From positions 1-43,190 of the forward strand of contig CAWIEK010000032.1 of the NCBI GenBank assembly GCA_963835065.1: a stretch of DNA of 43,190 bases, read 5' to 3'. The number at the start of each line of letters is the position of its first letter. Within the stretch, counting starts at the first letter, position 1. This DNA is from an uncultured Chthonomonadaceae bacterium. GTDB taxonomy: Bacteria; Armatimonadota; Chthonomonadetes; Chthonomonadales; Chthonomonadaceae. A program made the position numbers and the translations under genes. Positions 15,599-38,412 of the stretch are shown here, one piece after another. The notes under the pieces are model-generated. The model worked only from the letters and a program-made list of their open reading frames with translations, did no database searches and was not told the DNA's origin.

Positions 15599-15931
15599 AA
15601 GGAGGTGTTATTACTTTTGGTTCATTTTCGACTCACCGGTTAGACGGAGCCAAATCCAGTCCGTTTCACTAATATCAGGCGCGATTTTCTACCGGATTAT
15701 TGACTGGAACGCCTATTTTTTGGAAAATGGGAACAAAACCGCGCATAAGCGGTATCCTATCGGGTATAGTTGTAGTTGTTAAGATGGGATTAAGGTTCCC
15801 AGTGTTTGGCAGGGCTGCCACGCGACAATTTACTTTCTGCGTTCTTTGGGAATGATAGGGAGAAATCGTGCGCGTGTTTTTTATTTTTGCCTTGCAGTCA
15901 TTTTCTTTCCCAATCCACCAGGAGGTGTCTT

Positions 15932-31286: not shown

Positions 31287-32909
31287 TTAGGCGGCTGTCG
31301 CTGCCGCCTGCTTACCCTTGGGCGCTTTCGGCGCTTTGGGCGGCTTGGGCGCTTTGCCCGGCTTGCCTTTTTTCATGGCGTTGGCGGGCGGGGCGATTAA
31401 GGGATACGCGCCCAATCCGATGCTGACCGGGAACAGCACGGCAATGTCCTGCAGGTAATCCGGCGATTGGTTTTTCGCAATCACATTCATGGTTTCCAAA
31501 GGATTGCCGATGCGGGCGGGAATACCCAACTGCTCTTCCAGAAACGGGGCCATGTTGCGCAGTTTGGCCGAGCCGCCCACAATCACCATTTCATGGATGG
31601 GCGCGTCACCCGTCTTGTTGCGGTAATAATCTATGGAGCGGCGGATTTCCTGCACCAGTTCGGCAAGGATGGGCGCAATGGCGTTGAATACGTTGATACG
31701 CATGGCTTCGCGGCCCGGATCGCCCGTCGGCGCGGCAACCGGCAGATTCGGGTCTGCAAACGGCATCGGGTCCGGCGCGGCATACGCGGTTGCGCCTGGG
31801 TTCGCAAAATCCGGCGTTGCGGGCGGCGTAAAGAAACCCGTCGCTTCGGGCGCGTTTTGAACCGGGTCCAGGCCAACGCCGGTCAAGTTATGCTGGTCGG
31901 CTTCGCCGCTGCTGAAGTCGAACGGCGTAGCGGCAGGCGGGGGCGGCGCTTCGCCCGGCGTGGAAAAGTCGAAGGGCATGCGCCCGGACGGCGAGGACGT
32001 GGGGCCGGTTCCGGGAACCGGAGCCGCCGGGTCAACGGGCAGGGGCGCAGGCTGGGCGGGATCGGTAAAGTCCATAAAGCCGCCGGGAGCGCCGAAGTCA
32101 CCACCGCCGAAACCACCGCCTGCGCCACCAAATTGGTCGAAAGCCTGCGGCGCGGCCTGTCCCATGATTACTTCGCCCACGTCGCGCTTCATCTGCTCGG
32201 CTGTGGCAAGATCAACATGCAGTTCGTTGGCGATGGCGCGGGTAAAGTTGTCGCCGGCCAGGCTCAGGGTGCGCGGAAAGGCCAGCAGTTTGTCCCGGAA
32301 AATGGAGACGTCCGTGTTGCTCGCGCCGATATTGATAATCGCTACCGTGTGTCCCGGCGCCTGGGAGGTGGAGGGAATGGTCAGCAGCGCGCGTCCCGCC
32401 GCGAGCGGCTCTACGTCAATGGCTTTGGGCTTCAATCCCGCCTTGAACAGCATCTCGACGTGGCGGTCAATCATTTCCTGCTGCGCGACGGCGAGGCATA
32501 CTTCCATGTTCTGCCCATCGCCGTAGCCTTCGGGACGCGTAATGGGCTGGTAGTCCATAACCACTTCGCTGGCATTGAAGGGAACCTGGCGCTCCACTTC
32601 CCACTTCATCGTTTCGGCGAGTTCCGCCGCGTTCATCTGTGGCACGTCAATCACGCGCACGACGACGGCGGATTGTCCCGATACGCTGCTGATGACGTCC
32701 CCGCCGCCGATGCCGGCTTTTTTGAGCAGCGCCTTGACCGCCTGCGCCAGCATTTGCGGGTCAATGATCGCGCTGTTTTCAAAGGCTTCTTGGGGCGTGG
32801 GCGCAACATCTAAAGACACGACTTCGATGCCTTTGCTCCCTTTGCGCACAGAAGCAACCTTGATGAGATTGGAACCGATGTCCAAACCGATGTAGGAACC
32901 GCCTGCCAT
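31287..32909 (-). CDS. pilM: Type IV pilus assembly protein PilM with long low-complexity insertion
   Basis: IGLDIGSNLIKV, MKWEVERQVPF, AIDVEPLA, INIGASNT, ELVQEIRRSIDYY, VGGSAKL, SIGLG. Confidence 0.92.
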   Translation of the reverse strand: MAGGSYIGLDIGSNLIKVASVRKGSKGIEVVSLDVAPTPQEAFENSAIIDPQMLAQAVKALLKKAGIGGGDVISSVSGQSAVVVRVIDVPQMNAAELAETMKWEVERQVPFNASEVVMDYQPITRPEGYGDGQNMEVCLAVAQQEMIDRHVEMLFKAGLKPKAIDVEPLAAGRALLTIPSTSQAPGHTVAIINIGASNTDVSIFRDKLLAFPRTLSLAGDNFTRAIANELHVDLATAEQMKRDVGEVIMGQAAPQAFDQFGGAGGGFGGGDFGAPGGFMDFTDPAQPAPLPVDPAAPVPGTGPTSSPSGRMPFDFSTPGEAPPPPAATPFDFSSGEADQHNLTGVGLDPVQNAPEATGFFTPPATPDFANPGATAYAAPDPMPFADPNLPVAAPTGDPGREAMRINVFNAIAPILAELVQEIRRSIDYYRNKTGDAPIHEMVIVGGSAKLRNMAPFLEEQLGIPARIGNPLETMNVIAKNQSPDYLQDIAVLFPVSIGLGAYPLIAPPANAMKKGKPGKAPKPPKAPKAPKGKQAAATAA

Positions 32910-33466
32910 GATTTGCTATCCTTAATTGTGGCTGCTATGGTGGCTGCCGCGTTCGGGCGTTCGGGAAAAGAGCGCCGGACGGGTCAGCGGGCATACGTTG
33001 GGAAATTTCGCGTTTCTGGTTTCATCCGAGTGGCGACGGGACGTCGGCAATCTGACCGACAGGACGCCGACAATGCAGGGTATCGGATGCGGAATCACCG
33101 CCGCGCAGGAGGTCTGGAAAGCGCGTACAGGCGAGTGGTGGGTTTTTTGGGTACAACACATCTTCATTGTATCCGTTTTGAACGCGCCTGTCAACTCCCC
33201 ACCTGCCGCAGAACGGTATTTTTCACCGCCTGCCTGCAAAAACGCCGCGCCCCGCTGCGTCCCTTGCTATTCCTACCTCTTTTGTTGCGTATTACAGGCA
33301 AAGGGTTCACGCGCGTATTGGCCCTCAACCCCTAACCCTTAATCTGAAAGATGGGTATTCAGGTGTTCGGGCATTTCCATACGGAGTGGCGAACGCAGTT
33401 CATAGAATTCTCTCTAAAGTTGGGAGAGGGGAACCTATGAAATAGATTCTTAAATTGAGCGAAACC

Positions 33467-33583
33467 ATGCTGACCTACAAGAAAATCACAAAAATCAAGC
33501 GTGTGCCCGTCCACACCACTGTTTACAATTTTCATGTGCCCGGCACGGAATCCTACCTTGCCAACGGCATTGTGACGCACAAC
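33467..33583 (+). other. Intein C-terminal fragment (IntC, blocks F and G)
   Basis: MLTYKKITKIKRVPVHTTVYNFHVPGTESYLANGIVTHN followed by Cys; VYN..V...SY.ANG..THN/C is the canonical intein C-terminal splice junction. Confidence 0.92.
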
Positions 33584-34348
33584 TGTTACGTTAGCCGGCG
33601 GAAGGGCGCGGCGAACCCGATTACCACGTTTGTCAATATCGAGCAGATTTGCGGCTATCTGGCGCGTCATGCGATGCGGCAGGGGGCAAAAACCGAACCT
33701 ACGATGGCTGACGCGCATTTGTGGACGTATGAACTCGGAACCAACAGCGACTGCGCCGCCGACGCGCTGGTATCCGACAACATCAAAGACCTTGTCGCCC
33801 TGTACCGAACGCTTCCCAACGCCAAAGCGACGTTTGCCACCAAGTACGTCAACCGCGACCTGCTCGGCTACGATCCGCAGGGCAAAACTCGGCTGCGCTT
33901 CAGCCTGATGCCGCCCCATGTCGCCAAAGTGGTGGATGTTCGCACATCTAAAGTGATTGACCGCATTACTGCCATCAATGATTTCGTGGAAGCCGGGTAC
34001 GAAGTGAACGTCAACTTCGCGCCCGTGATTGTGTACGACGGCTGGCTGGAAGATTACGCGGAACTGTTTGTGATGCTCGACGACCATCTCAGCCCGCGCG
34101 CCAAACAGCAAATGGCGGCGGAAGTGGCGTTTCTGACCCACAATGAGGAACTGCACGAGGTCAACCTGGGCTGGCATCCCAAAGGGGAGGAATGGCTGTG
34201 GATGCCGGAAATTCAGGAAACCAAAATCTCCGGCACGGGCGGCAAGAACCTGCGCTACAAGGTGAAACTCAAGCGGAAGTGGGTTGAGCAGTTCTGCGCC
34301 CTGCTGCGCGAAAAACTGCCCTACTGTCCCATCCGCTACGCCTTTTGA
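33467..34348 (+). CDS. IntC fused to the C-terminal part of a spore photoproduct lyase-family radical SAM protein
   Basis: After THN: CYVSRRKGAANPITTFVNIEQI, YELGTNSDC, ATFATKYVN, TRLRFSLMP, EVNVNFAPVI, FLTHN, RYK, IRYAF, matching SPL-family proteins from the third Cys of the SAM motif onward. Confidence 0.88.
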   Translation: MLTYKKITKIKRVPVHTTVYNFHVPGTESYLANGIVTHNCYVSRRKGAANPITTFVNIEQICGYLARHAMRQGAKTEPTMADAHLWTYELGTNSDCAADALVSDNIKDLVALYRTLPNAKATFATKYVNRDLLGYDPQGKTRLRFSLMPPHVAKVVDVRTSKVIDRITAINDFVEAGYEVNVNFAPVIVYDGWLEDYAELFVMLDDHLSPRAKQQMAAEVAFLTHNEELHEVNLGWHPKGEEWLWMPEIQETKISGTGGKNLRYKVKLKRKWVEQFCALLREKLPYCPIRYAF

Positions 34349-36608: not shown

Positions 36609-37823
36609 ATGTCCGATTCCACGTTTTTAACCAGAGTCACGCTGACAAACTACAAGAGCATCGCGCATTGCGACGTGCAAATGCGCCCGCTCATGTTCCT
36701 TGTCGGACCAAATGGCGCGGGCAAAAGCAACTTTCTCGACGCCCTCCGCTTCGTATCGGACGCGCTCAATACGTCATTGGATCATGCCATTCGTAAGCGT
36801 GGTGGCTTTGAGCAGGTAAGTTGTCAGACATCAGGTGATAACTACTTCATCGTCCGTCTGGAATTCCTCTTGCCAACCGGCGAAACAGGATGTTACGGCT
36901 TTGAAATTTTACAAGTTGAAGCGAATCAGTACAACGTACTGTCTGAGGAGTGTCGGGTACATTTGGGCGGCGTTACCGACAAAGAAGCCTATTTTTACGT
37001 TGAAAATAGAAACGTGACAACGAGTGAACCCGTCGTGCCCGTTGCCTCTGACGACCGTCTATACCTTGTCGCTGCTTCCGGTCTTCCCCCATTCCGTCCT
37101 GTATACGACGCCCTTACGCGCATGGCGTTCTACAACCTGAACCCGGAGAAGTTGCGTGATTTGCAGCAGACCGATTGGGGTACATTGCTGACCCATGACG
37201 GCGACAATATTACCAGTGTTCTTCAAACCCTGATGGGCTATGCGCCTAACATAAAACAGCGCATCGAAGAGTATCTGGCGGTCATCGTTCCAGGGATTAC
37301 AGGAGTGAACGTAGAAGACTATGGGCCGAAAGAGATGTTAGAATTCAAACAGCAGGTTGAAGGAGGGTATAAAACATCGAATTTTCCGGCTTCCAGTATG
37401 TCGGACGGCACGTTGCGCGCGCTTGGCATACTCGTTGCTTTGTTTCAGACGGGTGGGGAGAGAAATGTTCTGATACCCCTTGTCGGGATTGAGGAGCCGG
37501 AAACCGCGCTGCACCCCGCCGCTGTCGCCGTTCTGCTGGACGCGCTGGAAGAGGCGAGCCTGACGCGGCAGGTGTTGATTACCAGTCATAGCGCCGATCT
37601 GCTGGACAACAAGCGCATTGATCCCGACGCCCTGCTTGCCGTTGCCGCGCGGGATGGCAAAACAGAAATCGGGCCGATTGATGCGGCCAGCCGTTCGGTA
37701 TTGCGCGATCATCTGTTTACGGCAGGAGAAATGCTCCGCATGAGTCAGTTTGCCCCGGACACAAACGCTCAGTCTTCCGAAACGGCAGACAGGTCGCCAC
37801 TCCCGGACGAACACGCCGCATGA
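36609..37823 (+). CDS. AAA/ABC-type ATPase (AAA_21/AAA_15-like)
   Basis: NYKSI, GPNGAGKSN, MSDGTLR, IEEPETALHP, ITSHSADLL. Confidence 0.9.
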   Translation: MSDSTFLTRVTLTNYKSIAHCDVQMRPLMFLVGPNGAGKSNFLDALRFVSDALNTSLDHAIRKRGGFEQVSCQTSGDNYFIVRLEFLLPTGETGCYGFEILQVEANQYNVLSEECRVHLGGVTDKEAYFYVENRNVTTSEPVVPVASDDRLYLVAASGLPPFRPVYDALTRMAFYNLNPEKLRDLQQTDWGTLLTHDGDNITSVLQTLMGYAPNIKQRIEEYLAVIVPGITGVNVEDYGPKEMLEFKQQVEGGYKTSNFPASSMSDGTLRALGILVALFQTGGERNVLIPLVGIEEPETALHPAAVAVLLDALEEASLTRQVLITSHSADLLDNKRIDPDALLAVAARDGKTEIGPIDAASRSVLRDHLFTAGEMLRMSQFAPDTNAQSSETADRSPLPDEHAA

Positions 37824-38412
37824 AACGGGTCAACCTTGCCTGTATTGTGGAAGGGGAAGGCGACGCAAAGGCCGTTCCCATTCTGGCGCGACGCATTGCG
37901 CGCGAGATTGATCCCGCCGTATATCTGAACACGCCTGACGAAGCGATCCGCGTACCCCGGGGTAAAATTGTCAAACCGGGTGAATTGGATCGGTATGTTA
38001 CGCTGGCAGCGAAAAACACAGGCGCGGCGCGATCCTGATACTCATAGACGCAGACGCGGACTGCCCGGCGATTTTGGCTCCCCAACTTCTGCTGCGGGCG
38101 CAAACCATACGCTCCGACATGCCCATTGCTGTCATTCTCGCGCAGATGGAATATGAGGCATGGTTCCTTGCCGCCGCGCTTTCCCTACGCGGACAGCAGG
38201 GACTTGCCGCCACGCTGGAGCCGCCGCCCGACCCGGAAGCCCATTCCGGCGCGAAAGAGTGGCTGCGCAGACACATGGAAGGCAGCCGCTCGTACAAAGA
38301 AACGGTGGATCAGCCCGCCCTGACACGGCTATTTGATCTCACCGCCGCCCGCCAAACCGCCTCCTTCGACAAACTCTGGCGCGACATGGAGCGGCTTCTT
38401 ACCGAACTGTAA
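37820..38412 (+). CDS. DUF4276 family (TOPRIM-like) protein; frameshift near 38030
   Basis: IVEGEGDAKAVPIL, then shifted ILILIDADADCP, EYEAWFLA, AKEWL, YKETVDQ, SFDKL; ATGA overlap with ATPase stop. Confidence 0.82.

Follow-up and report, generated by a model that had tools for sequence, protein, structure and literature searches.

An uncultured Chthonomonadaceae bacterium encodes a radical SAM protein of the spore photoproduct lyase (SPL) family in two unlinked genes, whose products are likely joined by protein trans-splicing via a naturally split intein, as deduced from their sequences. With somewhat less confidence, we propose that an Fe-S enzyme is made here only by trans-splicing from unlinked genes, and that this represents the end state of a living cycle in which a two-strand mobile split intein with an antisense HNH would be aimed at the third motif Cys of radical SAM proteins from two or more enzyme families, in several phyla and in phages, before re-fusing or drifting apart.

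The window, i.e., the complete stretch of 43,190 nucleotides analyzed, bears on the plus strand (33467–34348) an ORF of 293 aa, comprising a 39-aa IntC, the C-terminal half of the split intein (33467–33583), and a 254-aa C-extein of an SPL-family (TIGR03886) radical SAM protein (33584–34348). Just as a previous sequence-only reading had claimed, a 39-aa peptide is directly followed by CYVSRRKG in the ORF translation. This peptide starts with Met, has a net charge of +4 and ends with ANGIVTHN, and residues 19–40 of the C-half match the profile of the intein C-terminal region TIGR01443 at 31.5 bits, above the cut-off of 15.6. The TIGR03886 match extends over residues 32–293, corresponding to profile positions 83–346 of 346 (E 3.5e-127). 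Residue 1 of the C-extein, a Cys encoded at 33584–33586, is the +1 splice residue and at the same time the third Cys of CxxxCxxC. The in-frame stop placed at 33443 by the same reading is indeed present, as a TAG (33443–33445, plus strand) located 24 nt 5′ of the IntC ATG, which shuts the frame upstream (open frame of 300 aa). Likewise, tblastn with intact and contiguous-intein relatives did not find any N-extein or IntN 5′ of the ORF in the window, as had been noticed before, and the divergent neighbor upstream is pilM (type IV pilus assembly; 31287–32909, minus strand; from ORF and family assignment). A sigma-70-like promoter, TTGACA-17-TACAAT (33166–33194, minus strand; one site versus 0.8 ± 0.8 in shuffles), is directed at pilM and not at the IntC gene. 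Dispersed repeats belonging to two families and nested within one another (33320–33457; 21 blastn matches in the assembly, two self or duplicate matches included) end about 10 nt before the IntC ATG and probably represent the breakpoint where the upstream part of a cassette was lost. Sequence comparison rules out a chance origin of the IntC-headed C-half, because 33 C-halves among 224 family proteins begin with IntC, which in 30 of them has a length of 37–39 aa. An AlphaFold model of the C-half (pLDDT 75.5, with residues 19–28 and 36–55 below 50) is uninformative on the lone IntC, and in fold it comes closest to spore photoproduct lyase 4fhe (E 1.5e-14, TMq 0.69).

The window’s own assembly (G000; 8.0 Mb in 71 contigs, 91.9% complete, 3.7% contamination) mixes strains. 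Searching it by tblastn with the intact and contiguous-intein relatives resulted in identification of the partner gene, a 254-aa ORF at G000 C1:44454–45218 (plus strand; L001:7455–8219) that encodes a 162-aa N-extein ending with C156-x3-C160-x-Y162, followed by a 92-aa IntN and a stop. The earlier proposal that an SPL N-terminus ending with CxxxCxY and fused to a Cys-initiated IntN is encoded elsewhere in the genome, and could be found by such a search, is thereby confirmed, and the assignment of the +1 Cys as third Cys of the motif holds as well, since it completes C156-x3-C160-x-Y162|C of the partner. IntN and IntC thus reside in separate ORFs, each of which has a start and a stop codon and also encodes one part of the same host protein, and by sequence the CxxxCxxC motif of the radical SAM protein is present only across the splice junction. 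The C-half covers positions 83–346 of TIGR03886 and the N-half positions 1–96, tiling the profile, while the single halves (424.3 and 137.6 bits) each score below the curated cut-off of 437.55. Searching the whole of G000 with TIGR03886 gave a total of three matches, two being the C-half (on C32 and C63) and one the N-half. Accordingly, an intact copy of the gene was not found in this strain-mixed assembly of 71 contigs, though at about 92% completeness an intact allele may reside in unassembled DNA.

The partner gene is located 44 kb from one end of the 225-kb contig C1, with a probable sigma-factor gene region on one side, which we recognized by eye only and take to be such, and S-layer-like/mreB-like genes on the other. 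For the C-half, C63 provides no less than 17.7 kb of upstream sequence (C32 provides 33 kb), and about 250 kb follow downstream on C63. From the known flanking DNA around each half on C1, C32 and C63, a distance of no less than about 60 kb between the halves results. Moreover, the neighbors of the intact gene in two same-genus genomes map to G000 contigs C53, C22 and C3, hence neither half resides at the ancestral site any longer, the genome having been shuffled. The IntN stop lies at the edge of a truncated palindromic repeat, and the G000 IntN is without the last 4–6 residues of the usual 96-aa tail. Repeats consequently adjoin both breakpoints, the repeat families being different between them. 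The palindromic family at L001:8222–8285 (C1:45221–45284) gives about 94 blastn matches in G000 and is found in many copies in public-run contigs, and two further repeat families are found upstream of the IntC gene. Just 5′ of the N-half gene, a 622-bp segment with a short ORF (L001:6714–7335) is missing from an X1 contig and represents a variable insertion.

Every splicing residue checked is kept in the G000 halves, and Cys1, block-B T-x-x-H, C-terminal His-Asn and Cys at +1 classify the intein as class 1 (Hint domain). Across the split alleles, all 44 IntN sequences retain Cys1 and block B, and all 34 IntC sequences retain His-Asn. All 83 positions of TIGR01445 are matched by the G000 IntN, albeit with a score below cut-off (17.2 versus 24.5), and the nearest solved Hint domains are 2lwy and NrdJ-1 8ubs. 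The acidic IntN (net charge –8) and the basic IntC (+4) are predicted to fold into one Hint domain. Split IntC sequences are more basic than contiguous ones, with means of +2.9 and +1.1, respectively (p 0.0004, kin not being independent). A complex model of IntN and IntC reached 0.88 versus 0.00 for the best control, with runs agreeing in at least 97% of contacts and a pLDDT of 86 for the partner; 116 of 157 solved pairs pass the mark applied, as do 2 of 215 mismatched ones. Because Hint folds are already solved, this model result is a likeness to these folds and does not indicate binding. In class 1 intein chemistry, Cys+1 is the nucleophile. Trans-splicing would join Tyr162 to Cys+1 and restore CxxxCxxC, and since one thiol would be both splice nucleophile and iron ligand, splicing would have to precede [4Fe-4S] loading.

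Expression signals at the IntC gene are not obvious. A Shine-Dalgarno-like 4-mer is missing at its start, as it is at 61% of 1616 surveyed starts, about 75% of these starts pair more strongly with the 16S tail than it does, and a promoter scan did not find any plus-strand promoter consensus. The public runs listed as sharing the sequence did not include an RNA data set, which speaks neither for nor against expression. The lack of a clear ribosome binding site or promoter would fit a decaying relic, in which the uncoupled IntC gene had lost its transcript source, i.e., read-through from the N-half promoter, and both halves were becoming pseudogenes of an accessory gene; the repeats adjoining both breakpoints and the dispensability of the family, with an N-half match in 21 of 401 genomes of the phylum searched, point in the same direction. 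We nevertheless regard such a decay as unlikely, as both frames are intact in G000, also in its second copy of the C-half (three nucleotide differences, two of them synonymous), and in the related proteins P0122, P0227 and P0228 (93–96% identity), and no frameshift was found within either ORF in the public-run contigs examined. In P0227, with a C-half identity of 96%, none of the 11 differing sites is in an invariant column. Moreover, in comparisons restricted to proteins of close kin, N-halves with the same truncated tail differ mainly within the non-conserved first 67 aa (11/67 versus 7/187, p = 0.001; second comparison 8/67 versus 4/187, p = 0.003), so that changes avoid the conserved core, which suggests selection continuing after loss of the HNH. 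The dN/dS ratio between G000 and G001 (pN 0.09–0.21 versus pS 0.49–0.77) mostly reflects time before uncoupling and is no evidence for present function.

Considerably less probable is that the halves bind via the intein without being spliced, the enzyme then being a non-covalent two-chain complex with a cluster ligated by two Cys from one chain and one from the other. The intein halves are predicted to bind, and free-standing endonucleases breaking intein-less genes are mentioned by Dassa et al. (2009; PMC2677866). However, the catalytic residues are all invariant, as would be expected only if splicing matters, and a Hint domain of about 130 residues kept inside the CxxC turn is sterically unlikely. 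For the splicing route, the sequence-only reading had also considered a post-translational control. This idea found no support; evidence for regulation was not found, and the history of a mobile intein–HNH cassette accounts for the split.

An assembly or binning artefact, with the halves in reality being adjacent or stemming from different organisms, might be suspected from the strain mixture of G000 and from both junctions touching repeats, but has hardly any probability left. The IntC junction was assembled twice in G000, on C32 and C63. Furthermore, the stretch from the pilM side to the IntC start is covered by public-run contigs from X1 (32000–33368 and 33354–33734), X2 (33152–33386) and X3 (33297–33548). 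X1 and X3, both bridging the junction, come from different studies, thus a misassembly at this position, which contigs across it had been proposed to exclude, is unlikely. At the other half, the IntN stop is bridged to the next gene by X4 contigs (L001 8186–8281 and 8252–8349), X4 being near-identical and possibly the source sample. Contigs from X1 and X2 follow the N-half to three bases past its stop and then continue with DNA differing from G000, and the Logan protein P0228, encoded on a contig of 3514 nt, exactly as long as the X1 contig just mentioned, ends with the same truncated IntN tail as G000. The tetranucleotide profiles of C1 and C32 are typical of the bin (r 0.985, equaling the median), and both exteins are closest to same-genus alleles. 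The public run sharing most with G000 is labeled as biocrust metagenome. Window positions 15841–43190 were assembled again as C63:1–27210 with 97.6–98.7% identity (27 kb), hence the assembly represents a strain mixture. Within this region, about 215 bp of the window (38032–38246) have no counterpart in the C63 copy, and, within 36609–38412, an AAA_21-type ATPase with MADS3/AbiEii-like matches (MADS3 below cut-off) is followed by a frame-broken partner ORF (37820–38412).

Programmed DNA rearrangements are known from heterocyst excision elements and the sigK skin element. A rearrangement of this kind rejoining the halves at the DNA level is the least probable reading although contiguous alleles exist in the same genus (P0226 and L013) and repeats flank both breakpoints, as the breakpoints have no more than a 7-nt word in common, which random pairs of 200 nt typically share as well, the repeat families at the two breakpoints differ, no recombinase is evident among the ORFs adjoining either half (part of which were scanned against families), neither a joint nor a loose end at the IntC start was found among the public-run contigs, and the contiguous alleles are separate lineages of 74–93% identity and not from the same genome.

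For placing the unlinked allele among its relatives, 224 proteins obtained in two homolog searches (best 120 of 3155 and best 120 of 180) were sorted by motif into 126 intein-free proteins, 17 with a contiguous mini-intein of 131–149 aa, 33 C-halves and 41 N-halves, the latter count leaving out P0078 and P0202 (intein-free, mis-sorted) as well as the truncated P0149, P0164 and P0165. In 38 of the 41 N-halves, IntN has a length of exactly 96 aa. DNA was compared for 21 intein-bearing bacterial loci (13 of 18 and 8 of 80 loci), and the comparison of contiguous and split alleles proposed earlier revealed both forms, 10 and 11, respectively. The halves of 8 of the 11 split loci, which derive from Abditibacteriota, Trueperaceae, Rubrobacter and metagenome contigs, are separated by a gap of 557–609 bp with an oppositely oriented ORF of about 275 aa, encoding an HNH protein (frameshifted near its start in L032). 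In the other three, the HNH is partly deleted (L016), interrupted by a transposase (L035) or absent (L039), the IntN stop overlapping the IntC start in the last case. The L035 transposase (from position 645 onward) is probably IS30-like, judging by its motifs, and interrupts the HNH of an allele of Rubrobacter type that does not otherwise differ from L021/L036 near IntN; IntC is absent from the remaining 1.6 kb.

Family assignment of the gap ORF is based on P0234, which passes Pfam HNH_2 narrowly (22.7 versus 21 bits) and shows a weak NUMOD1 match, while P0233 does not match any Pfam family; 19 homologous clusters were found, with motif residues invariant in the 19 aligned proteins. In every locus carrying it, the HNH is encoded on the strand opposite the halves. 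Its last 70–90 codons, among them those for the final His residues of the motif, are antisense to the IntN sequence, and because of this overlap the IntN length is fixed at 96 aa. At the other end, the HNH start overlaps the IntC ATG head-to-head, sharing CATG, in L014, L022 and L037. A programmed frameshift, first suspected from the fixed IntN length, was rejected, as this length is set by the antisense HNH and the G000 halves are on separate contigs. G000 does not possess a free-standing HNH gene; the HNH profile matches only the strand opposite IntN, with a stop. Hence, the free-standing endonuclease between the halves that characterizes fractured genes is present in 8 of the 11 split bacterial loci and in the viral contigs L167–L170 but not in G000, and the three coding regions are not all on one strand.

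The distribution of the element is wide. Split halves occur in cyanobacteria of Leptolyngbya and Oculatellaceae, as judged from protein names and accessions, with one pair (HEY9693028.1 / HEY9693030.1) being one gene apart. Within the bacterium’s own phylum, the gene is present in the 21 of 401 genomes mentioned above, with a near-full-length intein in G000, G001, G138 and G149 and a partial one in G231 (L025). In IMG/VR, three viral contigs (L167–L169) carry SPL-like genes that have a short N-extein and are split by the same inverted HNH cassette, and on a 548-kb contig (L170:347–4286) the third Cys is again the position of the same element, the host being a radical SAM gene of AmmeMemoRadiSam type. 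Both halves of this gene match TIGR04337 with scores below cut-off, the HNH contains a frameshift, and additional ORFs between the HNH and IntC place the halves about 2.5 kb apart. These phage forms were found only by HNH alignment; a viral scan with IntN alone gave one distant locus, and 18 viral SPL-like loci found by N-half alignment did not contain any intein. A same-genus intein-free allele (G002 C7:95519–96752; L008, L136) shows several frameshifts, as does pilM there, which are probably assembly errors.

A tree of 201 C-exteins (leaving out P0005 and P0008) needs 31 changes in intein presence, at least 21 of which are forced by strong branches, compared with a mean of 54 after shuffling, and near-identical pairs with and without intein exist, for example, P0229/P0231 versus P0230. 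This patchy presence fits homing, though repeated loss would look similar. In an IntN tree (74 rows, few columns and rough support), the contiguous alleles are scattered among split ones with nine changes, and their monophyly is rejected (AU p 4e-10) for 27 rows hand-picked after seeing the 74-row tree. The G000 IntN belongs to a clade (support 96/87) with the HNH-tailed N-half P0123 and the contiguous L013 and P0226. Read in the antisense HNH frame, IntN does not contain a stop in 10 of 10 loci with HNH or HNH remnant, nor in the contiguous L013, nor in L039, while one stop is found in G000 and two to nine in nine other contiguous loci. Synonymous shuffling leads to an expectation of 2.3–3.0 stops, and finding none has a probability of 0.01–0.03 per locus, loci not being independent. 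Owing to the stop-free frame, L013 looks like a recent re-fusion. The single stop in G000 is not significantly fewer than expected by chance (P 0.14–0.25), and this test therefore does not show HNH ancestry for G000. Its IntC, however, starts at the same Met as in HNH-split alleles.

The simplest path to the present state would accordingly start with invasion by the cassette, followed by HNH loss and uncoupling. An IntN-[inverted HNH]-IntC cassette would have homed into the gene, already providing IntC with its own start codon, and the G000 lineage would then have lost the HNH at dispersed repeats, with genome shuffling finally separating the halves. Direct breakage of a contiguous allele is possible as well but must recreate the same start codon. 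Taking the invasion path, the unlinked halves of the G000 lineage would represent the last step of the gene-breaking model of Dassa et al. (2009).

Besides, G000 is an intein-rich genome. A presumably FolE (GTP cyclohydrolase I)-like ORF (C49:176545–177819, minus strand) bears a contiguous intein just before the Cys of CEHH, apparently a metal-ligand Cys, a gene that we take to be DnaB-like (C53:323968–327129, minus strand) has two contiguous inteins, and an NrdJ-like gene (C49:532756–535750, plus strand), recognized by eye like the others, contains inteins, its frame being broken in the assembly.

With cyanobacterial split DnaE and the Nanoarchaeum equitans polymerase, which are named as the unlinked cases (step IV) in PMC2677866, the system shares a chromosomal gene in two unlinked pieces, an acidic IntN, a short basic IntC and the absence of an endonuclease beside either half. 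In contrast to these replicative polymerases, the host here is an accessory radical SAM protein of Fe-S type, interrupted within the motif for the cluster; intermediates are still found in its genus or family, and splicing is predicted from sequence. The relatives resemble the fractured genes of PMC2677866 in the order of IntN, endonuclease gene and IntC, in half sizes (92–96 and 37–39 aa, within the ranges of 88–105 and 33–54 given there), and, in L039, in adjacent halves left by endonuclease loss, like gp41-7. Those fractured genes, however, have all three ORFs on one strand, GIY-YIG or Vsr-like nucleases and mainly phage loci, whereas the relatives of the G000 allele possess an HNH nuclease on the opposite strand, overlapping IntN and the IntC ATG, and occur both in chromosomes of bacteria and on viral contigs. 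The hosts named in the portion of PMC2677866 available do not include radical SAM proteins.

The assumption that a split intein in a chromosomal radical SAM gene would be unusual could be sustained only partly. Contiguous inteins are on record for this host type, with 48 in SplB/COG1533 of Actinobacteria (PMC4760082), which share the location in an SPL-like radical SAM protein, a split form not being mentioned in the accessible text of that source. NF038136 (NCBIfam, Rv2578c family) is another family with inteins and matches residues 153–244 of P0121 at the motif–intein junction (E 3e-8). A literature search of full texts, most subscription papers and supplements being outside its scope, did not find a description of a split intein in the SPL family. 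Consequently, novelty is restricted to the antisense HNH and to the gene being split and unlinked, whereas the class and the evolutionary model are already known.

Assignment of the host to the SPL family stands, but not its identity with SplB itself. The C-half scores 75.5 bits with TIGR04070 compared to a cut-off of 400, and Thr is found at the position of Cys140, i.e., the residue mutated in the C140A/S structures, with Glu or Cys nearby in some relatives. By contrast, the intein-free relative P0002, with a C-extein identity of 92%, reaches 577.8 bits with TIGR03886 (cut-off 437.55) and 116.3 bits with TIGR04070 (cut-off 400), and sequence comparison places the host in the uncharacterized TIGR03886 family. 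With Geobacillus SplB (4fhc–4fhg, 4k9r, 4rh0) it shares the fold (TMq 0.69–0.70), CxxxCxxC and the Tyr at the position of Y98, the residue mutated in 4k9r, at an overall identity of about 21%. Our likeliest guess at the enzyme’s role is repair of UV lesions in dried DNA or cells. Dry DNA forms spore photoproduct, and an SPL-family gene is induced by UV-C in a desiccation-tolerant non-spore-former (both PMC12029717).

If correct, the split SPL-family gene would add a chromosomal example to the split-intein genes known to be fully uncoupled, all intermediates being available in a single genus. In the path of Dassa et al. from contiguous via endonuclease-fractured to unlinked genes, the end cases named differ in gene from the intermediates, going by the available text of PMC2677866. 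Here, alleles that are intein-free, HNH-tailed split, contiguous or unlinked are all found within one gene family, and even within a single genus or family, and the model therefore becomes directly testable. The antisense, overlapping HNH would be a different way of building a mobile split intein, and roughly 40 natural IntN/IntC variants of about 130 aa with a Tyr|Cys-Tyr junction are candidate tools for protein ligation. For the enzyme itself, a splice junction coinciding with an Fe-S ligand would tie splicing to cofactor loading.
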